Assembly (NCBI GenBank): GCA_014816185.1
Contig: GCA_014816185.1_4095.1
Length of the DNA: 64,000 nucleotides
Reading direction: 5' to 3' (one strand)
DNA from: a phage
The position numbers and the translations under genes are program-made. Shown here in pieces: positions 20,477 through 50,804 of this stretch (positions are counted from its first letter, which is position 1; each line of letters starts with the position of its first letter). A model generated the notes under the pieces. The model ran no database searches. It was not told the DNA's origin and saw only the letters and a list, made by a program, of their open reading frames with translations.

Positions 20477-20579
20477 AATTCCCTCCTTTATTCATTATAT
20501 CATATTTACCTCCTAAAGAAAACCCTTGACACCCTTTCAGTACTGGTGTACTATAGAAGGAATATAAGGAGAACTGTAC
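20477..20579. promoter_or_regulatory. divergent promoter region (partial MLPF cassette on minus; TTGACA-17-TACTAT on plus)
   Basis: plus-strand TTGACA ccctttcagtactggtg TACTAT then AAGGAG and ATG 20580. Confidence 0.4.
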
Positions 20580-20807
20580 ATGACAACTACACTTAAGTAC
20601 TACATTAATACTCTAAATGAACTAGAGTACGCGAAGTTTCTCGCGGATAGTTCGTGGCTAATTGAGCTAAAAACACATAACAGTACTGGATGTAACCTTA
20701 TGCTGAACAATGCACTTGATACCCTTGTAGTGAGTATTTTACACAGCAACATCTGCGGGAATAGCAATAAACAATTATCAAAAATCTTAGTACTGGTAGC
20801 TCTATGA
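20580..20807 (+). CDS. small protein, divergent first member of ~60-aa tandem family
   Basis: 75 aa; KYYINTL N-term, LVLVAL C-term. Confidence 0.5.
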   Translation: MTTTLKYYINTLNELEYAKFLADSSWLIELKTHNSTGCNLMLNNALDTLVVSILHSNICGNSNKQLSKILVLVAL

Positions 20808-21016
20808 ACACTATGAACATTGAACAGTACTACATCGATGCACTACCAACAAAAGGTCTACGAGAAAGCCTACTGTATACACAAAATAATTATATAAACT
20901 TCAAACATTGTCCTAAACTCTTGAACTCGTACAGGAATAATAAAATAAGAAATGCTGTACAAGGGGTAGAAAGTATGCAATACTATTACATCCTAACCCT
21001 TTTAATCGAGCACTAA
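20804..21016 (+). CDS. ~60-aa family member
   Basis: N-term QYYIDALP, C-term YYILTLLIEH; ATGA overlap. Confidence 0.55.
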   Translation: MNTMNIEQYYIDALPTKGLRESLLYTQNNYINFKHCPKLLNSYRNNKIRNAVQGVESMQYYYILTLLIEH

Positions 21017-21017
21017 T

Positions 21018-21203
21018 ATGTATAAAGAATTCTACTGTAGTAAGCTGCACAAACAATACAGAGATTCATTTCCAAATGAACCTATGGATATGAATAGTCC
21101 CTTTTATAAATTTGACTTCAGACTGGAGACACGTTATGCAATAGAACATCAATTTCCTGAAACTAAGTACTTATCTATCATGAACCTCATCTTTAAGTTC
21201 TAA
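21018..21203 (+). CDS. ~60-aa family member
   Basis: MYKEFY..; C-term YLSIMNLIFKF. Confidence 0.55.
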   Translation: MYKEFYCSKLHKQYRDSFPNEPMDMNSPFYKFDFRLETRYAIEHQFPETKYLSIMNLIFKF

Positions 21204-21214
21204 AAGAGTACTAT

Positions 21215-21427
21215 ATGAAAACTATGAACATACACCAGTACTACTTAGATATTCTCCCTAAAGATGTACAGTTCATCCTTAAACAAGAATACAGTACTTT
21301 AAAAAACCTTAAAAGAACCGCACCGAATGTATTAATCCTGCACCAAGAAAATGTAGTTGATAATATTCTACAAGGTGTACCAGGGACCGAGTACTTTAAC
21401 ATAATAAGGCTAATTACATTACCATGA
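21215..21427 (+). CDS. ~60-aa family member
   Basis: QYYLDILP..YFNIIRLITLP. Confidence 0.55.
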   Translation: MKTMNIHQYYLDILPKDVQFILKQEYSTLKNLKRTAPNVLILHQENVVDNILQGVPGTEYFNIIRLITLP

Positions 21428-21609
21428 ATCATATATTATACTATTACCAAAATCTATCCGACAGGGACAAGTACACCCACAACTCCAATGTATGGTACTA
21501 CAAACGCGGTAGTATAAGAGACAAACAACATTACTTCTGTATTGCTATAAAAGAAGCACTAACAACTAAGTACACGTACAGAGCAGTACTGAAACTTATT
21601 GATATGTAA
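21424..21609 (+). CDS. ~60-aa family member
   Basis: C-term YTYRAVLKLIDM. Confidence 0.55.
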   Translation: MNHILYYYQNLSDRDKYTHNSNVWYYKRGSIRDKQHYFCIAIKEALTTKYTYRAVLKLIDM

Positions 21610-21619
21610 AGAGAATACT

Positions 21620-21802
21620 ATGAGCATTGAATTGTACTTAAGTAAATTACAGCCTGGCGATAGATTCATCTACAATAAGTTCGAATTCAACTACAAGAAC
21701 GGGAGCAACAAATATCGTCGAGGATACCTATATACAAGCACAAGAGATGCACAAAACGAAAAGTACACATACAGAGAAGTACTTAAACTAATCTCTATTT
21801 GA
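21620..21802 (+). CDS. ~60-aa family member
   Basis: start at ATG 21620 (MSIELY); track start 21599 is TTG; C-term YTYREVLKLISI. Confidence 0.5.
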   Translation: MSIELYLSKLQPGDRFIYNKFEFNYKNGSNKYRRGYLYTSTRDAQNEKYTYREVLKLISI

Positions 21803-21810
21803 GGTAATAT

Positions 21811-21996
21811 ATGAATACATTTGAGTACTATACCAATAAACTATCTATGCCTGAAAGATCTCATCTCTATGTGTGGAGAAATGCGTATAAAAGCGGCAAT
21901 AAACTTATACAAAGAAATTCCCTTACAGTGTGTACAAATTTAATTAAAGCAGAGTACCGCACATATATTGAAGTACTCAAACTGATAGCAATATAA
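21811..21996 (+). CDS. ~60-aa family member
   Basis: MNTFEYYTNKLS..YIEVLKLIAI. Confidence 0.55.
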   Translation: MNTFEYYTNKLSMPERSHLYVWRNAYKSGNKLIQRNSLTVCTNLIKAEYRTYIEVLKLIAI

Positions 21997-22004
21997 GGTA
22001 CTCT

Positions 22005-22172
22005 ATGCAAGAATTCTATATCTATAACCTCCAGCACAAAGATAGATACAACTATAATAAATTCCAAAGGTACTACACAGTCGGGAACAAAAGAGATAAA
22101 AAACGTTATCTACTCTCGTGTACAGTAGAAGCACAAAACGAAAAGTACACGTACAGAGAAGTACTTAAACTA
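22005..22172 (+). CDS. ~60-aa family member with 1-nt deletion near 3' end
   Basis: MQEFYIYNL..; aaaacgaaagtac here vs aaaacgaaaagtac in paralog 21620..21802 shifts frame and removes the conserved YTYREVLKLISI tail. Confidence 0.35.
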
Positions 22173-22191
22173 ATCTCAATCTAAGGTAGAC

Positions 22192-22380
22192 ATGAACACT
22201 TTTGAGTACTACTTCAATAAACTAAACCACATAGAACAAAGTATGCACAACTCATTTATTCAGCACCATCAATCATCTGCACATGGAATTAAAAATATAT
22301 CGATTGAGATTATCACTACCCGTGTACTGTCATCTGAACGTTATATGTATATTGATGTACTGAAACTCATCTCTATGTAA
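22192..22380 (+). CDS. ~60-aa family member
   Basis: MNTFEYYFNKL..YIDVLKLISM. Confidence 0.55.
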   Translation: MNTFEYYFNKLNHIEQSMHNSFIQHHQSSAHGIKNISIEIITTRVLSSERYMYIDVLKLISM

Positions 22381-22388
22381 GGAATAAT

Positions 22389-22568
22389 ATGCAAGAATAC
22401 TATATAGAACACATAAGCATTAAAGACCGTTTCATGTACGACACCTTCGTGAAGTACTACAACCTGGCAACTAATAGTACTAAAAATATTAATCTCAATA
22501 GCTGCATTCATCACGCACTAACAAAAGATAATCCCTTCAGGGAAATCCTCGCTCTCGCATCTGTATAA
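22389..22568 (+). CDS. ~60-aa family member
   Basis: 59 aa MQEYYIEHIS..; below track threshold, read from sequence. Confidence 0.45.
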   Translation: MQEYYIEHISIKDRFMYDTFVKYYNLATNSTKNINLNSCIHHALTKDNPFREILALASV

Positions 22569-22578
22569 AGGAAACCAA

Positions 22579-23238
22579 ATGAAACTTAATGCACACAGCA
22601 AACAATACCTTAAGCACTTTAAGTACCTCAACAGTATTCAAGCAGAATCTATTACATCTGCATATACGTATCACCCAAATGTACTAAAGAAACGAAATAA
22701 AAAGAAAAAATCCAGAAATGTTCTCGTATCTAAGAACCTCAAATCGTACTTGAAGAAAAATAATATAGCTCTTGCTTTTATTAATATCTATAATACTGAT
22801 TTAAAAGTATTGAGTACTAATACCAGCACAAAAGCACTAAAGAATGCATCTATCTATATACACATGGATAATATCCCGTGCACTATAATTCTATCTTTCG
22901 GGAATGTATACTTCTTCGGGAATTGTAATAGCACCCATGATATCAGTACTGCACAATTCCAAATCGGCGATATGTACTGCATGGGTTCAGAAAAAATACA
23001 CGATAACATGCACTTCTTCCAAAAGCAACGTACTAACGAAACTGATACAGTACTGCAATTCCTAAAAGAACTACAAAACAAAGAATTAACACCAGAAGAA
23101 GAATTCATGTACAGTACTGTAATCGATAATCCAGAACTCTATAAAAACGCGTACAATCTAACAAAACATGTACAGGAACTTATCAGTACTGATAAGAAAT
23201 TTCATCACCTCATTACGTATATTTCAAACTATGTATAA
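22579..23238 (+). CDS. hypothetical protein (219 aa) embedded in array
   Basis: longer Lys-rich ORF, not obviously a family member. Confidence 0.5.
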   Translation: MKLNAHSKQYLKHFKYLNSIQAESITSAYTYHPNVLKKRNKKKKSRNVLVSKNLKSYLKKNNIALAFINIYNTDLKVLSTNTSTKALKNASIYIHMDNIPCTIILSFGNVYFFGNCNSTHDISTAQFQIGDMYCMGSEKIHDNMHFFQKQRTNETDTVLQFLKELQNKELTPEEEFMYSTVIDNPELYKNAYNLTKHVQELISTDKKFHHLITYISNYV

Positions 23239-23404
23239 AGAATTCTACCTCTCGTACCTTAATTCCGATATAGTAACATCCAATACCTTCAGTACTAAAA
23301 TTATCTATAATGAAGTAATGAAAGAATGTATTAAAGGTGCTATTAACCCTAAAGATACGTATGACTTGTACTATGCAGTACTAACCCTTGTTTTCACGAA
23401 ATAA
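23231..23404 (+). CDS. ~60-aa family member
   Basis: MYKEFYLSYL..YYAVLTLVFTK; overlaps previous stop. Confidence 0.5.
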   Translation: MYKEFYLSYLNSDIVTSNTFSTKIIYNEVMKECIKGAINPKDTYDLYYAVLTLVFTK

Positions 23405-23412
23405 CACATAAT

Positions 23413-23604
23413 ATGAATAACCACAAAGAATACTACATAGAGAAACTCCCAATGTATCTCCAACACCTTGTACCAACAGAACCATTGCGTATAGAAAAAG
23501 ACTACGAAAAAGACTACTTCGTTAAGTGCACTAAATCCTCGATAGATATTGAGGACTATAATCGAGTACTGTATCACATCCTTTTACTAATATATAAGTA
23601 CTAA
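23413..23604 (+). CDS. ~60-aa family member
   Basis: MNNHKEYYIEKLP..LLLIYKY. Confidence 0.55.
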   Translation: MNNHKEYYIEKLPMYLQHLVPTEPLRIEKDYEKDYFVKCTKSSIDIEDYNRVLYHILLLIYKY

Positions 23605-23605
23605 T

Positions 23606-23794
23606 ATGAATAACCACAAAGAATACTACACACAATTTCTCCCCAGTATTTTTGAACACTACGCCAGATATAAAGTCCCTCTGGATAACGATTTGGCAGT
23701 ACTGGGATTCAATAATTGCATAGAACGCAGTATAGAAAATAGTAGTAGCTATGACCAATTATATAACACTATCCTACTTATATTCAGGTACTAA
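23606..23794 (+). CDS. ~60-aa family member
   Basis: MNNHKEYYTQFLP..ILLIFRY. Confidence 0.55.
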   Translation: MNNHKEYYTQFLPSIFEHYARYKVPLDNDLAVLGFNNCIERSIENSSSYDQLYNTILLIFRY

Positions 23795-23795
23795 T

Positions 23796-23984
23796 ATGCA
23801 TAAAGAATACTACACAAAATATTTCCCAATGTACCTCAGTACTAATCTATTAGATAAACCTCGCGGTATCAATGCTCAAAACGATAAAGTGTACTTTACT
23901 ATGTGCACTAAAGCATGTATACTAGATTTTGATAGCTATCATCGAGTACTGTATCATACACTGTACCTAGCTTTCGTGTACTAA
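23796..23984 (+). CDS. ~60-aa family member
   Basis: start at MHKEYYTKYFP (23796). Confidence 0.5.
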   Translation: MHKEYYTKYFPMYLSTNLLDKPRGINAQNDKVYFTMCTKACILDFDSYHRVLYHTLYLAFVY

Positions 23985-23994
23985 AGAGGCCAAT

Positions 23995-24201
23995 ATGAAC
24001 GAACAGAAAGAATTTTACACCAAACACCTCAGTGCATCAGAACAAATGTTTCTAAGGAGTGTATCACCTTTACGTTTAGATACACCACACGCCAGAGATT
24101 GCTTTAATAATTGTATACGTATTACTCTAGAAGCTTTAGAAAACAATAACAAAAATATTCAGTACTCAGGCGTAATGGGACTAATATTCTTCTATGAATA
24201 A
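23995..24201 (+). CDS. ~60-aa family member
   Basis: MNEQKEFYTKHLS..GLIFFYE. Confidence 0.55.
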   Translation: MNEQKEFYTKHLSASEQMFLRSVSPLRLDTPHARDCFNNCIRITLEALENNNKNIQYSGVMGLIFFYE

Positions 24202-24382
24202 CAAAGAATTCTACTTAAACCATCTGGAACTAAACTCCCAAATGCTTATACCACTAAACCCAATAGATATCAAGGATAAGAAAAATACCAAACAATTCCA
24301 CTACCACACACTATGTGCTATCAACCCAGATTATAATACATATAAACTGTACTACATTCTCGCCCTAATATACAGGTACTAA
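24194..24382 (+). CDS. ~60-aa family member
   Basis: MNNKEFYLNHL..LALIYRY. Confidence 0.55.
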   Translation: MNNKEFYLNHLELNSQMLIPLNPIDIKDKKNTKQFHYHTLCAINPDYNTYKLYYILALIYRY

Positions 24383-24383
24383 C

Positions 24384-24569
24384 ATGCATAGAGAATACTA
24401 CACACAATTTGTTAAAGGGAACTACAAACACGCCGTCCCCGTAAACCCCTTAAATTCTAATGACCCAAGTACTATATTCTTGTTCCATGACGCAATACGT
24501 ACAGTACTCAATACTAAAGATGAACAGGTGCAGTACGTATTCTTACTATTACTTATATACAGACACTAA
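24384..24569 (+). CDS. ~60-aa family member
   Basis: MHREYYTQFV..LLLIYRH. Confidence 0.55.
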   Translation: MHREYYTQFVKGNYKHAVPVNPLNSNDPSTIFLFHDAIRTVLNTKDEQVQYVFLLLLIYRH

Positions 24570-24574
24570 CTAAT

Positions 24575-24784
24575 ATGAATACAGAACATAAAGAATTCTA
24601 CTCCAAACACCTCAGCCCATCAGAACAAATGTTTCTAAGGACTACAGCACCTTTAAGTACTGATACATATTTCGGCAGAGTATGCTACAATAATTGTATT
24701 CAAATGACTTTAAACGCAAACGCCAATAATAACAGTACTAATATGTACTCCGGCATCATAGGTATACTATTTCTATATGAATAA
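24575..24784 (+). CDS. ~60-aa family member
   Basis: close paralog of 23995 (KEFYSKHLSPSEQMFLR). Confidence 0.55.
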   Translation: MNTEHKEFYSKHLSPSEQMFLRTTAPLSTDTYFGRVCYNNCIQMTLNANANNNSTNMYSGIIGILFLYE

Positions 24785-24959
24785 AGAACATAAAGACTTC
24801 TACATAAGAAAACTGACATTCGTCCCCGTAAAAATATATAAAGAATGCGACCCAAGATTATACCTATGGCACTTCAATGAGTGCATAAAAGATTCTATAT
24901 ACCCTAAGAACTACAAAGAACAATTGATCTCAGTACTAACACTAGTACTATCATATTAA
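24777..24959 (+). CDS. ~60-aa family member
   Basis: MNKEHKDFYIRKL.. Confidence 0.55.
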   Translation: MNKEHKDFYIRKLTFVPVKIYKECDPRLYLWHFNECIKDSIYPKNYKEQLISVLTLVLSY

Positions 24960-24972
24960 TAGAGATAATACT

Positions 24973-25164
24973 ATGCATAAAGACTATAAAGAGTACTATA
25001 TAAGTAAACTAAAAGAAAACGAACAAGCATGGGTTAACAATTTAATCCCCCTGGCAATGACTCAATACGAATTTAATATGTGTACAAAGATTGTTTTAAC
25101 TAGTAATGATATCTCTAATACGTACTACTTCCTATTAAGAGTACTATATGGTACTTTGAAATAA
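24973..25164 (+). CDS. ~60-aa family member
   Basis: MHKDYKEYYISKL.. Confidence 0.55.
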   Translation: MHKDYKEYYISKLKENEQAWVNNLIPLAMTQYEFNMCTKIVLTSNDISNTYYFLLRVLYGTLK

Positions 25165-25175
25165 TAAGGTATACT

Positions 25176-25382
25176 ATGCAGAACATAAAAAACTATAAAG
25201 AGTACTATATAAGTAAACTACCACCGACTGACCAAGCATGGATTAGATCTATAATAGTACTGGCATTTAATAGATATGCATTTAATAGATGTACCGAGAT
25301 TGCTATAGACCCTTATAATATTAAAGAGAATGTACAGCATAATCAGTACTACTATATGTTAATGCTTATATATAGGAAGTAA
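25176..25382 (+). CDS. ~60-aa family member
   Basis: NYKEYYISKLPPTDQAW.. paralog of 24973. Confidence 0.55.
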   Translation: MQNIKNYKEYYISKLPPTDQAWIRSIIVLAFNRYAFNRCTEIAIDPYNIKENVQHNQYYYMLMLIYRK

Positions 25383-26049
25383 TTCAACATATAGACAGGG
25401 GAAGCTCCGCAGGGAAAGCATTGGACAGGCTTTAACATATGTTATATATGTTAAAATTCAGCCTGGACAAATGCGATCACTAGGATTCTCCCCAGGCTAA
25501 ACCCCGTAATCATATGTAGTCATAAGTAATCATATATAAACATTTAAGTAATCATTTATAATCACAGTAGTGATCAGTATTGAGTACTAGAGTGTAATAG
25601 AGTACAGGAATGTGCACGTTTAATCAAGAACGTAGCAGTACTGCCCCAAAAGTATTCAGTACTGAAGGTGGCGATATCCCACTAAGTAGGCAGAGGAAGT
25701 CTGCCGTACTTTGTAGTTTCCAAGCTCCTTTTCCATTTTGCAAATTACATCAAATGTAATCAAAAGTAATCACGCAATGATTAGTACTGAATTATTACTT
25801 TCACCTTAATTTCAATTACCCTTTTACCCTTCGGGGTAAAATTCAATTACCCCTTGAGGCTCCAGCAAAAAGTTGGTTAGTACTCCATCCTAAATCTCGA
25901 TCCTAAAAATTTTGGAGTACCTATGAAATAAAAGTTGGATCTTCGAAAGTTGAAATTTACGTTGGGACGTTTATGATTTGTGGGATATAATGATGTTTGT
26001 AGTCGGGTAGTTCTCAAGAATATCAGTACTGAAAGATGAAAGAAAGTTA

Positions 26050-26077
26050 TTGACTTTATGATTCAGTACTGTATAAT
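26050..26077 (+). promoter_or_regulatory. orphan sigma70-like promoter TTGACT-16-TATAAT (no ORF downstream)
   Basis: TTGACT 26050-26055, TATAAT 26072-26077; no ORF of 60 aa or more on plus strand until 27368. Confidence 0.4.
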
Positions 26078-26439
26078 GTTCTACATAGCTTCAAGGGGTG
26101 ATGAGTTGCTGCGAACAATTCATTTACTCTACCTCCTGTCGTGAGACAGTACAGAAAAGATAGTTCCTCCTGTGGTGGTACATCTTTTTGAACCTCATAT
26201 GAAAATCGTAATAACAGTACTGATATTAACAGAATGGTATCAGTACTGATTTTAATCTAAAGCATTATGCCACCAGCTTGTGCTGGTGGATTCCCTCTAA
26301 CAGTATTCAGTACTACATGATAGTCTTCATCCTCCTAGGGTAACATAGTGAGGGCTATGATGGCAGTACTGAATACTCCCTTTCAAAAGATAGATCTATG
26401 GTATAGTACTGACGGATTTTGGGTGTAGTTACCCTGGAT

Positions 26440-26600
26440 GGATTTTGGACGTAGATATGTCTAGCCCTCCAGAAGTCTGGAAGTAAAGATGGCTATCCAT
26501 CTAGACGGCTAAACGGCTAGATTTCTGGATGGCTGGATGGCTAGACGTTTGGACGGCTAAACGTCTAGATGGTTACACGTCTGGAAGTATAGACGGCTAA
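26440..26600. repeat. cluster of short direct repeats (iteron-like)
   Basis: repeated words CTAGACGG, GACGGCTAAAC, TCTGGAAGTA(A/T)AGA(T/C)GGCTA (two copies ~104 bp apart), tandem CTGGATGG. Confidence 0.5.
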
Positions 26601-27113
26601 ATCAAAATTTTATTTTGTTTTTTCCAATAGTTCCCCTACCGCGTGGGGATAGTTTCCCCGCAGTATCTGGAGTTAGATTTTTCTGAATCTGGAATCATTA
26701 TCTTATAAACTGGGGGCAATGTCAACGGCCTGGACGGATATTTTTAAAAATTTTTTCAGTACTGAATTTTGGGCGTAACTATGCACCCGGTGGGCTTGAG
26801 TCTTTCTCGACTTGATGGAACTATTATACAGTACTGGAAAAATAAAGCAATACCCTGGATGAAAAAAGTTTTAATTAATTTGCTTGCTATCCTGGGCCGG
26901 ACTATGGTACTATATTTCAGTACTGAGAAAGTGCGTTAACCTGCTAGGGTGCGGGAGTGTATCCTTTTTAAATTTTATGAATTTTGGACGGATCTTCCCA
27001 CCCCCTGGGGTATCCGCTTTCTCGCGTCTATGTAGTAATTATACGCTTTTTTAGTACTGAGTCAATAGCTAAAAACAAAATAATTGAAAATAATTTAACG
27101 CGTTTAAACGGCC

Positions 27114-27198
27114 TGTAACGCCCTGGATTGTTGGGAGTGGTGCAAATGTATAGCTTAGGTGTATTAATGCGTTAGAATGCGATTGAGGCCGTTTTACG
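27114..27198. repeat. inverted-repeat-bracketed segment containing CGTTAGAATGCGATTGAG motif
   Basis: AAACGGCC ... GGCCGTTT flank; motif recurs at ~33266 and ~37812. Confidence 0.35.
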
Positions 27199-27341
27199 GG
27201 GTGTAGTAGTGATTTGGTTGATTCAGTACTGAATAATAGTACTCCTATATAGAAAGATAGTTCCCCTGGATGGTTGCAGTACTGAATAATAGTACTCCTA
27301 TATAGAAAGAAAACTATTTTAAAAGTATTTGTAGAAAGTAC

Positions 27342-27401
27342 TTGCACCGTACTGATAAAAGCGTATAATGTTTTACATCGAGAGCGGGAACACTTCCCGC
27401 T
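27342..27401 (+). promoter_or_regulatory. PeSL-like cassette (early promoter + GGGAA/TTCCC stem-loop)
   Basis: TTGCAC 27342-27347, TATAAT 27364-27369, stem AGCGGGAA-cac-TTCCCGCT 27383-27401. Confidence 0.55.
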
Positions 27402-27424
27402 ACACATTAAGAGAGATTAAAACG

Positions 27425-27787
27425 ATGGCGACTCAAATCAATAAAATCATGCTTAACCTGGTAAACTTCCGCGAAGAGATGAAAGGTCTTCCGGCTGAAA
27501 CTGTAAAAATTCACATTGCAGCTTATCGGGAACTTATTGCAATGTTGCCGCTTAAGCGTGAACAATACGCCGCTACTTTGATGCTTGATTCAATGATCCA
27601 TGTAATGATCTCAAATGATTTAACGATGGTTTATCAGTACATGGGAGAAAATTTCGCGGTGTGTAGTAAGCCAGTACCAGGGATGGCAACTACTGAGGAA
27701 TTGCACGGTTTAAATTTAAAGCAAGATGCATGGGATAATATGCCTCGTTTCCTGGTATGGGCTGACAGTGGCAAAATTTACAAATAA
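27425..27787 (+). CDS. hypothetical protein
   Basis: start at ATG 27425 (MATQINK) after GAGAGA RBS; 120 aa. Confidence 0.5.
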   Translation: MATQINKIMLNLVNFREEMKGLPAETVKIHIAAYRELIAMLPLKREQYAATLMLDSMIHVMISNDLTMVYQYMGENFAVCSKPVPGMATTEELHGLNLKQDAWDNMPRFLVWADSGKIYK

Positions 27788-27801
27788 GTTTAATAAAGTA
27801 C

Positions 27802-27860
27802 TTGCATACTAAGTTAAAACAAGTATAATACTTTCTATCAGGTGGGGAATAGTTCCCCAC
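27802..27860 (+). promoter_or_regulatory. PeSL-like cassette
   Basis: TTGCAT 27802-27807, TATAAT 27824-27829, stem GTGGGGAA-tag-TTCCCCAC. Confidence 0.55.
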
Positions 27861-27879
27861 TATATAAGAGGATTAAAAA

Positions 27880-28119
27880 ATGGCTAAATCAAAAATGTTC
27901 TTAGGTCACAAAAACAAAACTCATTGGAATGTAAGCCTGTGGATTAATAACGATGAGGGATTGTATCGGTTGGCCCTGGATTTTATTAACGACAACACTA
28001 ATCGCAATGATGCGGCCCGTCATATGATGTTATTTTTAGAACAGACTGGACAAGATAAAACACCGGACGGATTCAAATATAGCACTACTGCGATCCGTGC
28101 GGCGATGGTTGGAATGTAA
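27880..28119 (+). CDS. hypothetical protein (paralog of 29918..30157)
   Basis: shares GHKNKTHWNVSLWINN..LYRLA and C-term TPDGFKYSTTAIRAAMVGM. Confidence 0.55.
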   Translation: MAKSKMFLGHKNKTHWNVSLWINNDEGLYRLALDFINDNTNRNDAARHMMLFLEQTGQDKTPDGFKYSTTAIRAAMVGM

Positions 28120-28204
28120 TAGAATTTATTTAAAGTACTATCATTTTTTGCGATAGTACTTTATAATAGTGTTTTATTCATACACCAACGATAAGGGTAA
28201 CAGC

Positions 28205-28471
28205 ATGAATATTAAGTATTTTGCGACGCGTGAACAAGCTCGGATCGCCGCACGCCAGGACGGGGCAACGTTTAAAGATATGGGCGTACAATCGGAACGT
28301 GGTAAACGTTGGGCCATTGTAAAGCGTAGTACCGCCAGATCATTACAGTACTGGTTAGCGGCCTTAAAAAGACCCGATAGTGTATCGCGACGAGTGGTAG
28401 AAATAAAGCTCGACCGAAAGGGCAACCGCGTGACCGTGTACCGTACTAAAAAGATTGCAGTACTTGAATAA
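28205..28471 (+). CDS. hypothetical protein (paralog of 41730..42125)
   Basis: start MNIKYFATRE; shares ATRE.ARI.AR..GA.FKDMG and DRKGNRVTVY. Confidence 0.55.
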   Translation: MNIKYFATREQARIAARQDGATFKDMGVQSERGKRWAIVKRSTARSLQYWLAALKRPDSVSRRVVEIKLDRKGNRVTVYRTKKIAVLE

Positions 28472-28478
28472 AAAGTAC

Positions 28479-28537
28479 TTGCAAACTATGTTTAATGGCG
28501 TATAATGTTTTACATCGAGAGCGGGAACACTTCCCGC
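28479..28537 (+). promoter_or_regulatory. PeSL-like cassette
   Basis: TTGCAA 28479-28484, TATAAT 28501-28506, stem GCGGGAA-cac-TTCCCGC. Confidence 0.55.
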
Positions 28538-28558
28538 CTATAACCTGGAGTAATAAAA

Positions 28559-28789
28559 ATGACTAATATGTATATGACTGAAGTTAAAACCGTAAAAGAT
28601 ACTACCACTAATAAAACTACTTACTTACAGCGGATCTGTGGTGTATGGCAACGTATCAGCAAATCAAAGTACTTTAAATTAACATCATATGCCAATCGTT
28701 CGGATTCATTCAGTACTGAAATAAAAGGTAATAAAGTACACCAATACGGCACTTATTATTATTATAGCCTGGACGCGATTGCAGTATAA
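28559..28789 (+). CDS. hypothetical protein
   Basis: 76-aa ORF. Confidence 0.45.
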   Translation: MTNMYMTEVKTVKDTTTNKTTYLQRICGVWQRISKSKYFKLTSYANRSDSFSTEIKGNKVHQYGTYYYYSLDAIAV

Positions 28790-29065
28790 GCAGTTTACAA
28801 ATCTTTACAATTGCCGGTATTGACTTATTTTGTCAGTACTGGCATAATGTATTCATTGGCAGATAAGCCGTAGCCCATAGGGTGCGGGAGTGTATCTATA
28901 GAAAAAGTAGTTTATTACAGTTACAATTGTGCACCCGGTGGGTTAGCTGTTGTCATGGGGTATATTATGCCAGTACTGGATAGTGCTGTCAATACCTTTT
29001 TACTATTCAGTACTGAAAACTATTTGATAAAAAGTACTTGCAAACTATGTTTAAAGGCGTATAAT

Positions 29066-29155
29066 GTTTTACATCAGGACGGGGAACGAAATAAGTAACT
29101 TCCCGTTAAGTAGCCCAGGAGTAAGGCACACGAAAAACTCCCCTGATAAAATAGT
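29066..29155 (+). ncRNA. candidate small structured RNA / long structured leader (copy 1)
   Basis: transcribed from promoter TTGCAA 29038-29043 / TATAAT 29060-29065; no ORF; ~85% identical to 40538-40614; followed by second promoter TTGACA 29156-29161 / TATAAT 29178-29183. Confidence 0.35.
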
Positions 29156-29215
29156 TTGACAAATGTTTTTAAAAGCGTATAATACTTACATCAACTACTG
29201 AATGAGGGTTACAAA

Positions 29216-29827
29216 ATGAAAACTATCACTACTACTACTTTCGTTATGGATTTTTCTGAATTGAACGCAGAACAACAAACGTCAGCTATCGAACTGGTTC
29301 GGGAACGTGAAAAAAACTTAAACGATGATTATTTTTCTGAAAGTGAAATTGAATACTATAAAGAAACAGTACTACCGGAATATGGCATTAATGACGCTGA
29401 TTTACGATTCAGTGGCTTTTGGTCCCAGGGTGACGGTGCATCAATCAGTACTGACCACGTTGACGCAGTGAAGTTTTTACGCAAGGTAAGAGCATTAACT
29501 AAGTATCGCTCAATCCGTCACCTGCTGAATGAAGATGATTTGGCGATGAGTGTAAAGCGTTCGCACTCCCACTACTCGCATGAGAACACTGTAAGCGGGT
29601 ACATTGAATCGGCTTACACTGATTTAACAGCAAAACAAGAAACGTTAGTTAATGAGCTTGAGGAACTACTCACTGACACTATTCGTGAATTGTCCCGCAA
29701 GTTGTACCGTGATTTAGAGAATGCATATGAGGATCAATTCACTACTGAAAACATTACGGCACTGATTGAGGGTAACGAATATCAATTCAATGTTATTGAT
29801 GGCGTAGTAGAATCAATCGAATATTAA
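29216..29827 (+). CDS. hypothetical protein
   Basis: 203-aa acidic protein; motif FSGFWSQGDGASIS. Confidence 0.55.
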   Translation: MKTITTTTFVMDFSELNAEQQTSAIELVREREKNLNDDYFSESEIEYYKETVLPEYGINDADLRFSGFWSQGDGASISTDHVDAVKFLRKVRALTKYRSIRHLLNEDDLAMSVKRSHSHYSHENTVSGYIESAYTDLTAKQETLVNELEELLTDTIRELSRKLYRDLENAYEDQFTTENITALIEGNEYQFNVIDGVVESIEY

Positions 29828-29839
29828 TTTAAAAAGTAC

Positions 29840-29899
29840 TTGCAAACTAAGTTTAAAAGCGTATAATACTTTATATCGAGGCGGGGAGTGGTTCCCCGC
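29840..29899 (+). promoter_or_regulatory. PeSL-like cassette
   Basis: TTGCAA 29840-29845, TATAAT 29862-29867, stem GCGGGGA-gtggt-TCCCCGC. Confidence 0.55.
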
Positions 29900-29917
29900 T
29901 CAAACGAGGATTTAAAA

Positions 29918-30157
29918 ATGGCTAGTACTAAAACTTACAACGGTCACAAAAACAAAACTCATTGGAATGTTTCCTTATGGATTAATAACGGTGAGTCATT
30001 GTATCGGCTTGCACAAAGTTGTATCGCACAAAGTAGAACTAAAGATATTGCAGCGGAATGTATGTACCGCAGATTAAAAGCCAACGGTACTACTACAACG
30101 CCGGACGGCTTTAAGTATAGCACTACTGCGATCCGTGCTGCAATGGTTGGAATGTAA
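29918..30157 (+). CDS. hypothetical protein (paralog of 27880..28119)
   Basis: start MASTKTYNGHKNKTHWNVSLWINN. Confidence 0.55.
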   Translation: MASTKTYNGHKNKTHWNVSLWINNGESLYRLAQSCIAQSRTKDIAAECMYRRLKANGTTTTPDGFKYSTTAIRAAMVGM

Positions 30158-30214
30158 TATTCAGTACTGAGATAATGGCGGGTAATAGTTCCCGCCTTTA
30201 CTGAGGGTTATCTA

Positions 30215-30502
30215 ATGAGTAAAGTAATAAAGTACAATGTGTTAAGCAAATCATTGTCTATCAGTGAATGCACCGATGGTTTTTGGCTATTTGATGAAAC
30301 GCGTGGAATGAATTTAGCTATGCGTGAGAAAACGGCTGAGGCCGCATATGTTGAGGCACTGGAATACTACCAGGAACGTTTAAAGGAAGTAGAAGAAGAT
30401 TATAAAAGCCTCAAAGCGAAAGTAGATCATTTCGTCGGTCAATTAGTGGAAGACAACGACGAGGACGGGCACTACTGCGACCGTTGCGGATCTTACAGTT
30501 AA
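30215..30502 (+). CDS. hypothetical protein
   Basis: 95 aa; C-terminal HYCDRCGSYS. Confidence 0.45.
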   Translation: MSKVIKYNVLSKSLSISECTDGFWLFDETRGMNLAMREKTAEAAYVEALEYYQERLKEVEEDYKSLKAKVDHFVGQLVEDNDEDGHYCDRCGSYS

Positions 30503-30519
30503 GTACTAAGGATTATATA

Positions 30520-30732
30520 ATGAGTGATTTAATTGAACGTATCAAAGAGCTTGAAGAAAAAGAATTGCAGTTGATCGGGTTACGGAATAAAGTATTCCAT
30601 GATTTAGGTGGCTTTATTAATGCCTGGGATAGTGGCGATCCTGATGCGTTACCTGCTAACCGCCAGGCGATGATCAATGATGTGCGTGGTGTCTTTGAGT
30701 ATGTTTTAAAAGTACTAGACACTAAGCAATAA
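30520..30732 (+). CDS. hypothetical protein
   Basis: start MSDLIERIKELEE at 30520. Confidence 0.45.
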   Translation: MSDLIERIKELEEKELQLIGLRNKVFHDLGGFINAWDSGDPDALPANRQAMINDVRGVFEYVLKVLDTKQ

Positions 30733-30793
30733 AGGCGTATAATACTTTATATTGGTACTGACAAACATTATAAGCGATTCAGGAGCTTTAATC

Positions 30794-30979
30794 ATGACAA
30801 CATTATCTGAGGTTATCCGCGAGCAAGCTGCAAAGGCTGGAATGACTGTTATCAATGTAGGGATCAAGATTGAGATCTCCCCTAACGAGTTGCAAGGGAT
30901 TCCCGATCCTACTAGCTGGGATCGTGCTGGGCGAATGATGCGTAATGCTTCATTACTGGACGGTACAAAATTTAATTAA
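30794..30979 (+). CDS. hypothetical protein
   Basis: start MTTLSEVIRE at 30794 after AGGAG. Confidence 0.45.
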   Translation: MTTLSEVIREQAAKAGMTVINVGIKIEISPNELQGIPDPTSWDRAGRMMRNASLLDGTKFN

Positions 30980-31063
30980 AAGTACTTGCAATTAGTTTTC
31001 AGTACTGTATAATGGTTTACATCAAAGGGAGAAATGGTTCTCCCTGGTAATGAGGAAAATACA

Positions 31064-31285
31064 ATGGCTAATATCACTACTCTTTCCCAACTGGAAGCAC
31101 TGGTTAAATCTATGCGGGAACATGCCGACAAAATCGGCGTACAAGATCCAGCCGTTTGCTTCTGCGACGAATTGAATGATGATACACTGGTAATAGCAGA
31201 AGTCCAGGACGTTTCTAACTATTCCTCGCGTTACACTGGCGGCGTAGCAAATAAAGGCGACTTCTGTTTATACCTTACAAAATAA
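31064..31285 (+). CDS. hypothetical protein
   Basis: start MANITTLSQ at 31064. Confidence 0.45.
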   Translation: MANITTLSQLEALVKSMREHADKIGVQDPAVCFCDELNDDTLVIAEVQDVSNYSSRYTGGVANKGDFCLYLTK

Positions 31286-31453
31286 CAACGCGGGGAGATA
31301 ATAACTCCCCGTTACTTTTTCAGTACTGAATCATTTAATAGACGGATATATGCACCCGGTGGGTTAGTGACTGTTTCGTCTTGATGTAGTAATTATGCCA
31401 GTACTGGATGCAGTTGTCAACAATTATTTTTCAAATACTTTTTATTAAAATAC

Positions 31454-31507
31454 TTGCAATTAGTTTTTAAACGCGTATAATGTTTTGCATAGGGGAGCGG
31501 TTCCCCT
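31454..31507 (+). promoter_or_regulatory. PeSL-like cassette
   Basis: TTGCAA 31454-31459, TATAAT 31476-31481, stem AGGGGA-gcggt-TCCCCT. Confidence 0.55.
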
Positions 31508-31527
31508 GGTAACTAAGGAATAAGAAA

Positions 31528-31764
31528 ATGCTCGAACAAATCAAATCAACGTCTGCGAATGTAACGGGAACGGTATCACACTTTACTAGTGATGAATCGC
31601 GTGGTGTTCCTTATTGTGCTGTACATGTAAACACTGAGGGTAACTACTGGTTTACGGTTTACGGATCATATTCATTTGGTCGGCCTGGACATCAAAAAAT
31701 CCTGGATAAAGTACAGCCAACGGGTAAAAATATCACTGCTGAAATGTTTTATAAAAAATCATAA
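31528..31764 (+). CDS. hypothetical protein
   Basis: 78-aa ORF. Confidence 0.45.
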   Translation: MLEQIKSTSANVTGTVSHFTSDESRGVPYCAVHVNTEGNYWFTVYGSYSFGRPGHQKILDKVQPTGKNITAEMFYKKS

Positions 31765-31847
31765 AGTACTTGATAATAGTTTTTAGTACTGTATAATATT
31801 TTACATCGCAAGGGGGAGCGGTTCCCCTGGTAACTAAGGATAATCAA

Positions 31848-32147
31848 ATGAAAATTGCAATCATCGCCCTGGCTTTATCTGTTTCCTCTTTCGCTGTTAA
31901 TGCGTCGTTAGATGTAAGTAGTGAAAAATTCATTCAGTGCACTGTAGCGATGACCAATGAAAGTACTGGCGAGATTGTTTTAAAGGATTTAGAGATCCAG
32001 CCAGAAGCATTTAAAAACGGGCCGTTCCATGAAGAAGACGAAAAAGGTAGCACGACAATTTATTACGATGCAAGTACTAAACGCGGTTCGGTTACTGTTA
32101 TGGATACTGAGAAAGTAACGCATTCCGGCGTTATTAATTGCCGTTGA
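31848..32147 (+). CDS. secreted/periplasmic small protein (signal peptide)
   Basis: N-terminus MKIAIIALALSVSSFAVNA then SLD, a typical Sec signal. Confidence 0.5.
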   Translation: MKIAIIALALSVSSFAVNASLDVSSEKFIQCTVAMTNESTGEIVLKDLEIQPEAFKNGPFHEEDEKGSTTIYYDASTKRGSVTVMDTEKVTHSGVINCR

Positions 32148-32168
32148 TAGATACTACGGGGTAACATC

Positions 32169-32399
32169 ATGACAGCACGAATAGTTTTACTTAACGAAAG
32201 CAGTACTACACAACTCCTTAACGCCGTGCATTATGATATTGAAACGAGCGTTAATCTTATCAGTACTGTCGTACTGTTGGACACTGGAAAGGTCGCCAAT
32301 GATAAAGCGATTGCAGGTATACTAACGGATCTTGAGCCTGGTAGCAGTGCATCAATAACGTTAAATGGTAAAGTGTTTAACATTTTACTTACTGATTAA
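32169..32399 (+). CDS. hypothetical protein
   Basis: 76-aa ORF. Confidence 0.45.
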   Translation: MTARIVLLNESSTTQLLNAVHYDIETSVNLISTVVLLDTGKVANDKAIAGILTDLEPGSSASITLNGKVFNILLTD

Positions 32400-32405
32400 G
32401 TACAT

Positions 32406-32431
32406 AGCCCACCTGGTGGGCTTTTTTGTTT
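32406..32431 (+). terminator. intrinsic terminator
   Basis: GCCCA-cctgg-TGGGC followed by TTTTTTGTTTTT. Confidence 0.6.
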
Positions 32432-32632
32432 TTATAGTATCGTAGTACTGAGATACTTTGAAAATAGTTTTAAGAAAGTAGTTGACATTACCACAGAAAA
32501 GCGTAGAATGTATTACATCAAGACGGGGAGCACTAAGTAGACCGCCAGTAAGTCGAACGAAAAACTGGACACGTCGAGAAAACTTTGATACACTAATAAA
32601 CGTAAACTAAACTTTAATTGAGGATTTATAAA

Positions 32633-33115
32633 ATGGCTAATGTAAAATCATTCATCAAAGCACTGGTAGCAAATGAAACTAACGTCGCGGCTGAGATCCT
32701 GGCTGAACTGGATAACGATACCATGAAAGCGGTACGCAATAATTTTAACATCGCGTACAGTACTGCGAAAGAACTACAAGCAAATAAAGCGGCAGAAATT
32801 GAAGCGGCAAAGGCGGCCCGTGAAGCAGAACTACAAGCAACAATCGAAAGTATTCAGGCGGCAGTAGTTGGATTGGATCTGGAAGTAGTTACAGAGATGG
32901 CACAAAAAGCCCTGGCGGTTAAGTATGGGGAAGACAAGCCAGAAGTAAAAGCCAAAAAATGGATTCAGGAACGCGTAGCGGTAGTACTGGACAACGGGGA
33001 AGAATATCTGATTCCGGTGCGTGGTAACTGCATTGCGGTAGTACTGGATGCGATTAACTCCAGTGGTATGACTCGCGAGGAATGGATCGAAGCTCATCGC
33101 AAAGTTGAAGCATAA
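32633..33115 (+). CDS. hypothetical protein
   Basis: start MANVKSFIKA at 32633; Ala/Glu-rich helical middle. Confidence 0.5.
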   Translation: MANVKSFIKALVANETNVAAEILAELDNDTMKAVRNNFNIAYSTAKELQANKAAEIEAAKAAREAELQATIESIQAAVVGLDLEVVTEMAQKALAVKYGEDKPEVKAKKWIQERVAVVLDNGEEYLIPVRGNCIAVVLDAINSSGMTREEWIEAHRKVEA

Positions 33116-33136
33116 CAATTAAAGTACTGAATCACT

Positions 33137-33165
33137 AGCCCACTGTATAAGTGGGCTTTTTTGTG
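33137..33165 (+). terminator. intrinsic terminator
   Basis: AGCCCAC-tgtataa-GTGGGCT followed by TTTTTTGTG. Confidence 0.6.
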
Positions 33166-33389
33166 TTTATCGTTTACCAGGCCACCAGCACCGCCTAGAA
33201 TCGATTCTAACGCATTAAACTGATTATCTGATGCATTGCCCTAGCTGGTGGCGTTAAGGTCGTTAGAATGCGATTGAGAGCGTTTAAAGTATTTTGCAAA
33301 AAGTAATAAAAAGTACTTGCACGATTAAGAGATTAGCGTATAATTAATTACATCAAGGCGAGACACCTTAACTAACTGAGGATATAAAG

Positions 33390-33542
33390 ATGAATACTTA
33401 TGAACTGGATTGTTTTACTTTACAAGTAATGTCAGTATGCAGTAAGAAAGATTGGTCATCAAAGGAATTTAAAGCAGTTATCGCGTGTGCAAAACACGGC
33501 AAGACTATCAATGAAACGGCATCAATCATTGATAAACTTTAA
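33390..33542 (+). CDS. small protein (50 aa)
   Basis: MNTYELDCF..; below track threshold; preceded by promoter-like TTGCAC..TATAAT. Confidence 0.35.
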   Translation: MNTYELDCFTLQVMSVCSKKDWSSKEFKAVIACAKHGKTINETASIIDKL

Positions 33543-33550
33543 AAAATAGT

Positions 33551-33579
33551 TTGACAATAGTTTTAAGTACTGGCATAAT
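33551..33579 (+). promoter_or_regulatory. early-type promoter TTGACA-17-CATAAT
   Basis: TTGACA 33551-33556, CATAAT 33574-33579. Confidence 0.45.
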
Positions 33580-33611
33580 ACATACATCAACTACTGAATA
33601 GGAATTAAAAA

Positions 33612-33839
33612 ATGGCTATTATCATTACTCGCGTATCTGGTACTACTGGCAACGAACAAGTAGTTGCAGTCATTACCAACAAGGAAGGTGCGGAATTGCA
33701 AAATGCAATGAATACCTGGGCCGTTAATGAGTTCGGTCAGTGGGCAAGTGTAGCATACATTGAAACCTATCAAGTGCCGTCGATTAGTTTAACTGATTTG
33801 GGCGTTGAGCGTATCCTTTGCCTTGATGAATTAAATTAA
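33612..33839 (+). CDS. hypothetical protein
   Basis: 75 aa MAIIITRVSG. Confidence 0.5.
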   Translation: MAIIITRVSGTTGNEQVVAVITNKEGAELQNAMNTWAVNEFGQWASVAYIETYQVPSISLTDLGVERILCLDELN

Positions 33840-33924
33840 AAAAGTACTTGCAAAGTAAATCGAATAAAGTATAATACATTACATCAAGGGGAGAAATGGT
33901 TCTCCCCACTACAAGGAAACTAAA

Positions 33925-34068
33925 ATGAAAACTTGTCAATGTGGTCAGAAATCTATTACGGGTTTAAAGCGGGGCGTTGCACTTTGCCAGTACCATTATA
34001 ATTTACAAGTATGGGGTAAAGAATGGGCCGACCAGGTGGAAGCAGCAAAGAAAGAAAAAAGTAAGTAA
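33925..34068 (+). CDS. small Cys-containing protein (47 aa)
   Basis: MKTCQCGQKS..ALCQYHY; read from sequence. Confidence 0.35.
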   Translation: MKTCQCGQKSITGLKRGVALCQYHYNLQVWGKEWADQVEAAKKEKSK

Positions 34069-34087
34069 AAATATTATCACAGTACTA

Positions 34088-34116
34088 TTGACATAGTTTG
34101 ATAGTACTGGCATAAT
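34088..34116 (+). promoter_or_regulatory. early-type promoter TTGACA-17-CATAAT (copy 1 of 70-bp direct repeat)
   Basis: 34065-34135 nearly identical to 34359-34429, including the 3' codons of the preceding gene. Confidence 0.45.
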
Positions 34117-34149
34117 AGATTTTATCAAGACAACTAAGGGGAAACAATA

Positions 34150-34362
34150 ATGGCTATCATTACTAAAATCAAAGTTAACAAGACTATCGTTAAACTGGCA
34201 GAAGTGAAAGAAGGTTATAAAGTATCTTGGTGCGGTATGTATCGGACGTTCGCAGATATAGATGATGCAATCAATTACTACACTGACACGGTTAAAAACT
34301 TTGTTCGTGCTGATGTGGTTATGGCAGTGGCAACATATAAAGCAGCGAAAGAAAGTAAGTAA
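34150..34362 (+). CDS. hypothetical protein
   Basis: 70 aa MAIITKIKVNK. Confidence 0.5.
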   Translation: MAIITKIKVNKTIVKLAEVKEGYKVSWCGMYRTFADIDDAINYYTDTVKNFVRADVVMAVATYKAAKESK

Positions 34363-34381
34363 AAATATTATCACAGTACTA

Positions 34382-34410
34382 TTGACATAGTTTGATAGTA
34401 CTGGCATAAT
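34382..34410 (+). promoter_or_regulatory. early-type promoter TTGACA-17-CATAAT (copy 2 of direct repeat)
   Basis: TTGACA 34382-34387, CATAAT 34405-34410. Confidence 0.45.
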
Positions 34411-34453
34411 AGATTTTATCAAGACGACACATATTAATTTAAGGAATACTAAA

Positions 34454-34777
34454 ATGGCTAAAACTATCATCAACACCGTTTCCCTGGCTGCAATCCGTGC
34501 AATCAATGTTGACGGTAAACGTTGGTCTGATTCATATGGCAATACTTATCATTCTTGTCATGTAAGCGTTGAACTGGATAACGGTTTGAATGATCTGGCG
34601 GTTGAATCATTTACTTATGGCTATGAAGATGCATATCAACAAACGGCGTTTGATCTCTTAAAGGAATCAGTAGACGGGCTTGATACTATTGAAACCTCCC
34701 TTACTCGTTTATGTAATGATTTGTCTATCCCGTTGCATTGTACTGTACAGGATGTAAAACGTAAAAAAGATCTTTAA
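34454..34777 (+). CDS. hypothetical protein (paralog of 41311..41634)
   Basis: shares RW.DS.GNTYHSC.VS, FTYGY and C-term VKRKKD. Confidence 0.55.
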   Translation: MAKTIINTVSLAAIRAINVDGKRWSDSYGNTYHSCHVSVELDNGLNDLAVESFTYGYEDAYQQTAFDLLKESVDGLDTIETSLTRLCNDLSIPLHCTVQDVKRKKDL

Positions 34778-34857
34778 TTAGCTTTACTTTATGCAGATAC
34801 TTTGGTACAGTGTCTGCATAGGGGAAAGAAATTAAATTAACTTAAGAGGATCGTATA

Positions 34858-35127
34858 ATGAAAAATATCAGTACTTTAATCGACGCAGGTACACATGTTC
34901 GGCGGTCTATGGTTGCAACCAGTACTACAAAACAAGTAGCGAGCGGTTATCTTGTATTTGTGCACGATGGTAAACTCCTGGAACGTTCAATCAATTTTGA
35001 TGTTAAAAACAATTGCCGTTTTATTATCTTTAAGCGTGAACAATATAAAATCGATTTGCCAGCAAAGCCCATTAGCGGGGCGTACAACGTGCAATCATTG
35101 TTTGAGCGTCAACCTTACACCTATTAA
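34858..35127 (+). CDS. hypothetical protein
   Basis: 89-aa ORF. Confidence 0.45.
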   Translation: MKNISTLIDAGTHVRRSMVATSTTKQVASGYLVFVHDGKLLERSINFDVKNNCRFIIFKREQYKIDLPAKPISGAYNVQSLFERQPYTY

Positions 35128-35178
35128 TCAAAACATCGTTAGCGGTCGTTTTAGGCCGCTTATATTGGGGATTATACC

Positions 35179-35451: not shown

Positions 35452-35456
35452 TTAAT

Positions 35457-36346: not shown

Positions 36347-36351
36347 AAAAA

Positions 36352-50803: not shown

Positions 50804-50804
50804 C

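Follow-up and report, generated by a model that had tools for sequence, protein, structure and literature searches.

A tandem array of twenty small paralogous genes next to the terminal repeat of an Asteriusvirus jumbo phage: a possible early operon of diversified host-protein binders

The DNA analysed here is a 64,000-nt stretch of a phage genome (contig GCA_014816185.1_4095.1 of GenBank assembly GCA_014816185.1), referred to as the window, and its most unusual feature is a tandem array of very small genes at positions 20580-25382. This segment is 98% identical to Escherichia phage BF17 and matched 34 phage records, all from Asteriusvirus jumbo phages of E. coli or Salmonella (121Q, PBECO4, phAPEC6, fEgEco12 and others). 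The source of the window, judged by these matches, is an Asteriusvirus, a member of the 121Q/PBECO4 group of E. coli jumbo phages. An earlier note on this DNA had described about 22 back-to-back genes for paralogous proteins, a dense array of one micro-protein family that it considered very unusual. In fact, 22 consecutive ATG-initiated open reading frames (ORFs) of at least 55 amino acids (aa), numbered g01 to g22 (Table 1), fill exactly this interval on the plus strand with a coverage of 97.7%, whereas 300 dinucleotide-preserving shuffles gave a mean of 0.77 such ORFs, a coverage of 3.2% and a maximum of three ORFs. All junctions are tight, comprising five overlaps (two of the ATGA type and three of 8 nt), four 1-nt gaps (TAAnATG) and otherwise gaps of 5-13 nt. 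The program-listed starts of three ORFs were too long, and internal ATGs place them at 21620 (g06), 23231 (g12) and 23796 (g15). Nothing comparable was found on the minus strand of the interval, where ORFs reach at most 84 aa and cover 13%; a single larger gene in another frame or strand that could explain the periodicity does not exist. Neither a tRNA nor an Rfam RNA was found inside or after the array. The description of the earlier note thus holds for the 22 packed ORFs, while paralogy was borne out for 20 of them and not for g11 and g01; these 20 form a family that is lineage-restricted and has no known fold relative.

All-against-all BLASTP and hidden Markov model (HMM) searches placed the 20 ORFs in three groups: subfamily A (g05-g10), subfamily B (g03 and g12-g22) and subfamily C (g02 and g04). 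When the alignments were enlarged with homologues and compared by hhalign, A and B joined end to end over 56 columns (probability 94.3%, E 9.8e-8), as did C and B over 59 columns (probability 80.8%, E 1.3e-5). By these profile comparisons the 20 ORFs are demonstrably one family of diverged paralogues. A six-frame HMM search revealed no more members elsewhere in the window. Identity between paralogues is 20-45%, and the closest pairs are 70-74% identical in DNA with no pair in the window above about 74%; the expansion is therefore old, and a recent amplification was ruled out.

The two remaining ORFs differ in their relation to the family. Membership of g01 was not supported, since its comparison with the family by hhalign gave a probability of 4-8%; its homologue on the metagenomic contig L013 matched the family HMM with E 0.0019, and g01 may be a very divergent member. 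The central ORF, g11, which sits at the array centre in all relatives, matched PHROG 29152 over positions 1-223 of 223 (E 5e-115), and its C-terminal residues, about 60, are weakly family-like (conditional E 0.003-0.005). As a guide to function it was set aside: homologues occur only in these phages, its AlphaFold2 model has a predicted local distance difference test score (pLDDT) of 36, and Pfam gave a chance match only.

Members g03, g13, g16, g17 and g22, all of subfamily B, matched PHROG 11711 over 60-62 of 62 positions (E 2e-9 to 4e-27), while g01, g02 of subfamily C, and g07 and g08 of subfamily A matched no PHROG profile at E <= 0.01. Both PHROG 11711 and PHROG 29152 are groups without an assigned function, in which neither the unity of A, B and C nor the array structure is recorded. 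Searches with the family gave three single-member chance matches in Pfam (E >= 0.007), no match in NCBIfam, and one chance match (E 0.26) in a sequence profile search of the PDB. A profile search of 5.8 billion proteins found 48 clusters and an exhaustive HMMER search of 1.84 billion representatives found 35. All matches were stand-alone proteins of 41-84 aa, and where a source was named, it was either an Asteriusvirus or an E. coli assembly containing such a phage. As far as these searches reach, the family is confined to the Asteriusvirus group. The array is a real and uncommon feature with a new protein family.

The coding nature of the array was supported by comparison with relatives. The ORFs are open in seven relatives with third-position changes in excess and an overall ratio of non-synonymous to synonymous substitution rates (dN/dS) of 0.14-0.46, and all 22 are intact in every verified relative. 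The ratio is 0.29-0.40 in the N-terminal 17 codons, 0.41-0.53 in the middle and 0.24-0.27 in the C-terminal 17 codons, while dS is similar across the three segments. Since dS is no lower in the termini, they are conserved as protein and not as junction DNA; conservation at the DNA level was also rejected by the alternation of Tyr and Phe codons at the motif. The gene junctions are the best-conserved DNA between units. Altogether, this substitution pattern shows purifying selection on the array genes.

While the genes are maintained, their number and identity change between related phages. The earlier note had proposed a comparison of copy number in relatives, and family-HMM counts gave 14-21 members among seven related genomes: 14 in Salmonella phage SD-15_S21, 15 in 121Q and JNE01, 17 in phAPEC6, 20 in SHEFM2K and E9.1, and 21 in BF17, with 20 in this window and 19 in contig L013 (the unverified, frameshift-ridden CMSTMSU record was excluded). 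Among close relatives, most slots hold orthologues of 80-100% identity and some hold a different member (40-64% identity). Genes g06-g08 are 100% identical to those of SHEFM2K, while the adjoining genes are only 78-92% identical; such identical blocks beside diverged ones point to mosaic recombination. The comparison with JNE01 is the most striking in this respect. Its flanking DNA is 87-93% identical (on the left up to 19266 and at 20407-20578, on the right from 25449) and its flanking proteins are 75-100% identical, whereas only two short DNA stretches align within 20580-25448, at 70-74%. The array proteins of JNE01 are about 30-59% identical, with 39% for g11 and no match for g01. On these alignments, the array is a sharply bounded hypervariable island between conserved flanks.

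The locus was also seen outside isolated phages, at 8001-12471 of contig L013 (ENA ERZ27245996 k123_64921, a 250-kb contig), with the same synteny and 19 HMM matches. P0074, a clear member of the family that looks intermediate between subfamilies A and B, precedes the g01 homologue there, so which gene comes first in the operon varies. Public records annotate the array unevenly, with 12 coding sequences in BF17, 9 in phAPEC6 and 7 in CMSTMSU against 22-23 in Pharokka-type annotations, and the CMSTMSU array, in a record flagged unverified, looks frameshift-broken. Due to this partial annotation, many members will have been missed by proteomic and pangenome studies.

The 20 members are aromatic-rich proteins of 57-70 aa with isoelectric points (pI) of 5.5-9.6, four of the six subfamily A members being basic (pI 9.4-9.6). 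Structure prediction of a monomer, suggested in the earlier note, was run on g13 with an alignment of 45 sequences; AlphaFold2 gave a pLDDT of 89.6 and a predicted template modelling score of 0.74, with helices at residues 3-10, 14-17, 30-45 and 49-62. The family fold is, according to this confident model, a four-helix bundle, and no structural analogue of it was found in the PDB or among viral structures. The N-terminal motif of Lys or His, Glu, Tyr or Phe, and Tyr that the earlier note had reported is real and lies as KEYY..L in helix 1; F..C(T/I) marks the start of helix 3, Y..(V/I)L.LI lies in helix 4, and the most variable part is between helices 2 and 3. The reported hydrophobic C-terminal segment exists as the Y..(V/I)L.LI motif, but it is too short to span a membrane. 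Membrane proteins of the holin, spanin or superinfection-exclusion type were rejected, as the best 19-residue Kyte-Doolittle mean is at most 1.13 and the hydrophobic tail of about 10 residues is helix 4. From the Cys and His residues noted in the variable middles, a single semi-conserved Cys, present in about 13 of 20 members where helix 3 begins, remained, and no conserved His or metal-binding pattern; a zinc ribbon or zinc finger was rejected because CxxC pairs are lacking as well.

A candidate host-type promoter, resembling those of sigma-70, lies in the 103-bp divergent intergenic region upstream of g01, with the palindrome CAGTACTG in its spacer and a strong Shine-Dalgarno (SD) sequence, AAGGAG, of g01 downstream. 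The -35 box, palindrome, -10 box and SD are conserved in 7 phages, JNE01 included, with a mean column identity of 93%. It is the one promoter-like site for the array; no terminator-like site was found within, and the gaps do not exceed 13 nt. An SD core of at least 4 nt is present in only five genes and five have none at all, and these weak or absent SD sequences at several junctions imply translational coupling. The first terminator-like hairpin after the array coincides with the left boundary of a terminal repeat. Position 1 of fEgEco12, its physical genome end, aligns to window position 25685, and its repeat ends at about 47.9 kb. Direct terminal repeats of 20,993 bp in fEgEco12 were confirmed by restriction digests (PMC13070987).

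The palindrome links the array to this repeat. It occurs 63 times in the whole window against 0.79 expected, and for its core, AGTACT, the excess is 7-26-fold in every region. The density of AGTACT is 7.0 per kb in 20.5-47.9 kb versus 2.5 per kb elsewhere; the core is absent from 47765-52763 and from about 56-62 kb, and the rich domain ends exactly at the repeat end. The array and the terminal repeat thus share one motif domain. Eleven sites in the window, all within 20526-46595, have the layout of the array promoter, TTGAC(A/T), N6-9, CAGTACTG just upstream of the -10 box, N0-4 and a TATAAT-like box, and the ten besides the array's own are in the gap after the array or in the repeat. Its abundance suggests that CAGTACTG is a putative binding site for some protein, and in the spacer it may be an operator within the promoter for shutting off early transcription. 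Phages are not usually enriched in palindromes of the restriction type. Separately, the g11 coding sequence carries four copies of CAGTACTG within 250 bp (22944, 23048, 23112 and 23184), the densest coding-region cluster in the window. The 2-kb ORF-poor stretch at 25383-27425, unannotated in 121Q and without an Rfam match, includes the left end of the terminal repeat and has 12 copies of CAGTACTG and several repeats, namely GTAATCA (25506-25561), an iterated GGAYGG / TAGACGGCTAAACG (26487-26582) and a 53-bp direct repeat (27224-27310). This stretch is a candidate for a region controlling packaging, termini or replication.

On the other side of the promoter lie eleven tandem genes for RCC1-like beta-propeller proteins, which are divergent from the small genes. 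Most of these units are preceded by a conserved cassette of a hairpin terminator GCCAGTACTTGATACTGGC, a T-run and then TATTAAATATAGTATAATGAATAAAGGAGG, and most carry a promoter-like TATTAAATATAGTATAAT element without a -35 box, unlike the array promoter. The unit adjoining the small-gene array (19298-20476) is replaced in JNE01. A weak match to a head-fibre domain was noticed in the RCC1-like array. Further away, eight back-to-back ORFs of 104-141 aa at 3566-6346 (plus strand) have strongly hydrophobic N-terminal halves and likely encode small membrane proteins. This set is kept in 121Q (genes 224-232) and JNE01, and its first two ORFs are 51% identical, a possible second tandem family.

Table 1. 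Positions of the array genes and of associated elements in the window
Feature	Position	Strand	Remark
g01, leader ORF, 75 aa	20580..20807	+	Position kept in relatives
g02, subfamily C, 70 aa	20804..21016	+	ATGA overlap with g01; start possibly 20813
g03, subfamily B, 61 aa	21018..21203	+	PHROG 11711, E 2e-15
g04, subfamily C, 70 aa	21215..21427	+	
g05-g10, six subfamily A genes, 59-62 aa	21424..22568	+	C-terminus YTYREVLKLISI-like
g05-g10 individually	21424-21609, 21620-21802, 21811-21996, 22005-22184, 22192-22380, 22389-22568	+	
g11, 219 aa	22579..23238	+	PHROG 29152, another family
g12-g22, eleven subfamily B genes, 57-69 aa	23231..25382	+	PHROG 11711
g12-g17 individually	23231-23404, 23413-23604, 23606-23794, 23796-23984, 23995-24201, 24194-24382	+	
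g18-g22 individually	24384-24569, 24575-24784, 24777-24959, 24973-25164, 25176-25382	+	
Candidate host-type (sigma-70-like) promoter	20526..20554	+	TTGACA, cccttt, CAGTACTG, gtg, TACTAT; 17-nt spacer
First terminator-like site after the array, GC-rich hairpin	25686-25705	+	Coincides with left repeat boundary 25685
AGTACT/CAGTACTG-rich domain	20500..47900	.	Array, 2-kb ORF-poor stretch and ~22-kb terminal repeat
Promoter-class sites	20526-20554, 26050-26079, 28820-28850, 30986-31013, 38041-38069, 39048-39076, 44572-44599, 46565-46595	+	
Promoter-class sites	31420-31392, 28992-28962, 26386-26357	-	
RCC1-like beta-propeller paralogues, eleven tandem, 245-433 aa	7528..20476	-	Divergent from small-gene array

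A model is proposed, with a probability of roughly 45%, in which the array would be one operon, expressed early, whose diversified products bind host proteins for takeover of the host, anti-defence or phage competition. The 20 paralogues together with g01 and g11 would be read as one polycistronic operon from the host-type promoter. The conserved N-terminal (KEYY..L) and C-terminal (Y..VL.LI) helices would form a hydrophobic scaffold, on which the varying loop and helix 3 would offer different surfaces. The array would have grown via tandem duplication and would now be reshuffled in two ways, by unequal crossing-over at its conserved gene junctions and by recombination in the conserved flanks, through which related phages would exchange material; from these processes the 14-21 copies and the near-complete turnover between lineages would follow. 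Expression would occur early by the host RNA polymerase, jointly with the genes of the terminal repeat, and the products would form a set of small proteins that bind or inhibit host proteins, thereby serving host takeover, anti-defence or the contest with rival phages, and that diversify in an arms race. The promoter class, the 303-bp distance to the repeat, the hypervariable island, the variable copy number and the soluble, conserved-scaffold proteins all fit a role in takeover or anti-defence. Of two relatives, PA5oct transcribes its terminal-repeat genes early and depends on the host RNA polymerase to do so (PMC7318152), and CBB has an early region of small genes, extending into the terminal repeat, that is marked out by RpoD-like promoters (PMC5259590). 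A more specific and rather doubtful version is an anti-defence "accordion" of a single fold, in which the loop and helix-3 surface of each paralogue would neutralise a different immune or housekeeping protein of E. coli, and the cassette would be swapped or resized by recombination at junctions and flanks to match the defences of local hosts. If true, this would give phages an equivalent of the defence islands of bacteria and of the terminal multigene families found in African swine fever virus (ASFV) and poxviruses.

Several points weigh against the model of an early binder operon. We infer the early timing, the binding function and the targets of the array products, and the timing would derive from a consensus promoter match and from analogy with relatives; a literature search found no transcriptome of any Asteriusvirus. 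The number of sites in the overall promoter scan did not exceed that in shuffles. The array ends at 25382, 303 bp before the direct terminal repeat of about 22 kb, and is thus outside it. No similarity to a known anti-defence or takeover protein was found, in searches that included no dedicated anti-defence library. Furthermore, dN/dS is below 1 everywhere among close orthologues, so positive selection is not demonstrated, and the turnover relative to JNE01 could be an exchange of old allelic cassettes and not a fast adaptive change.

Among the alternatives, it is unlikely that the array is dispensable filler, produced by tandem duplication during genome expansion in a capsid-size ratchet and having no specific function today. 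Hua et al., whose idea the ratchet is, propose that genomes expand by tandem duplication and mention in one line tandem arrays in 121Q, with the genes unspecified, which may or may not be this array, of which 15 members were counted in that phage (PMC5646251). A fairly relaxed dN/dS of 0.4-0.5 in the middle segment and the freely varying copy number would agree with filler. However, the 22 ORFs are intact in every verified relative with dN/dS below 1, the scaffold helices are the most constrained, old paralogues of 20-45% identity have nonetheless been retained, and the promoter and SD stay conserved in spite of array replacement.

Quite unlikely is a packaging of the small proteins in the capsid and their ejection with the DNA, like the internal proteins of T4, with the N-terminus serving as a targeting or processing signal. 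The T4 proteins are made late, packaged and cleaved by the prohead protease, and at least one of them, IPI*, is an anti-restriction factor. Their locus in T4-type phages, as reportedly described by Repoila et al. in 1994 and by Comeau and Krisch in 2005, is hyperplastic and hypervariable, with a shared, conserved N-terminal segment and a variable remainder. The array is likewise a hyperplastic small-protein locus with a gene set differing between close relatives and an N-terminal motif conserved in the family, and two orthologues of the neighbouring RCC1-like proteins are virion proteins in phAPEC6 (PMC7247149). However, the array promoter has the host-type -35/-10 layout, from which the element upstream of the structural RCC1-like genes differs; the C-terminus of the family is conserved too, and in the model the N-terminal helix is part of one compact predicted domain made up by the whole chain, unlike a cleavable leader. 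As for a T4-type late promoter, TATAAATA is absent from the window and the only promoter-like site of the array is the -35/-10 one. In rows gp280c to gp551 of the phAPEC6 virion mass-spectrometry table, gp549, gp551 and a 4.66-kDa protein are present and none of gp540c-gp548c, with only 9 of the 17 family-plus-flanking genes annotated (PMC7247149); products of the several array ORFs lacking annotation would have escaped detection.

It was also considered, and given a similarly small chance, that the proteins bind DNA, as small regulators or as architectural factors, in the AGTACT/CAGTACTG domain, where they would for example switch off early promoters or organise the genome end. The excess of CAGTACTG and its presence in the spacers of 11 promoters, including that of the array itself, favour such a role, as does the basic character of most subfamily A members, and a zinc-ribbon expansion of about 35 copies in phage G was suggested to supply transcription factors or structural DNA binders (PMC7824862). 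No structural match of the g13 model to a helix-turn-helix or another small DNA-binding fold was found. Finally, a role as assembly chaperones or adaptors of the adjacent RCC1-like virion proteins, with both sets diversifying as matched pairs, is very improbable: the two arrays are adjacent, divergent and both variable, and the nearest RCC1-like unit is also replaced in JNE01, but tail-fibre chaperone genes normally lie directly downstream of their client gene, the two arrays have different promoter classes, and a one-to-one pairing was rejected as the RCC1-like and small-family counts do not track (121Q about 12/15, JNE01 9/15, this window 11/20, phAPEC6 11/17).

Comparison with known systems helps to class the array. 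SPO1 reportedly has a host-takeover module, described by Stewart et al. in 1998. The genes of this module and the pre-early (first-step-transfer) genes of T5 are small, non-paralogous and inside the terminal repeat, and their early expression and activities were shown by experiment. The array is similar in having many small genes at a genome end and a predicted host-type promoter, and a takeover role would be shared; it differs in that its genes are mutual paralogues 303 bp outside the repeat, with expression and activities that are predicted. Its conserved TTGACA-17-TACTAT site, the predicted early promoter, is of the same class as the 10 gap and repeat sites. In ASFV (MGF100/110/360/505) and in the "genomic accordions" of poxviruses, tandem paralogues beside terminal repeats vary in copy number, diverge fast and act in host range and immune evasion. 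The likeness is an analogy only, as hosts, proteins and replication are unrelated and the array is without recent amplification, its closest pair being about 74% identical in DNA. Anti-CRISPR and other anti-defence clusters also consist of small, soluble, lineage-restricted proteins of unknown fold at variable loci with host-type promoters, but they usually mix unrelated families, often with a helix-turn-helix regulator (Aca), whereas the array repeats one fold 20 times and has no such gene. A large one-family expansion of small proteins in a jumbo phage is known from the Bacillus phage G, the lineage-specific zinc ribbons mentioned above, an expansion put down to tandem duplication (Iyer et al.; PMC7824862, PMC5646251); the array family, in contrast, has a helical fold, a single conserved Cys and no CxxC pairs. 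Beyond the remark on 121Q, no published characterisation of the array, its variability, promoter or position was found in the literature. On the whole, the array fits best among the variable multigene families at the termini of large viruses or, put differently, among the modules of small phage genes expressed early.

It is rare for a phage to carry a tandem expansion of one microprotein family, and the present one has a confidently predicted fold without a known relative. Should the members be a diversified set of inhibitors acting on host proteins, each phage would offer about 20 ready probes for defence or housekeeping targets of E. coli, with dozens more across the genus. The locus could then explain differences in host range among therapeutic Asteriusvirus isolates. 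If this holds, phages, like large eukaryotic viruses, would use terminal multigene families as adaptive reservoirs.

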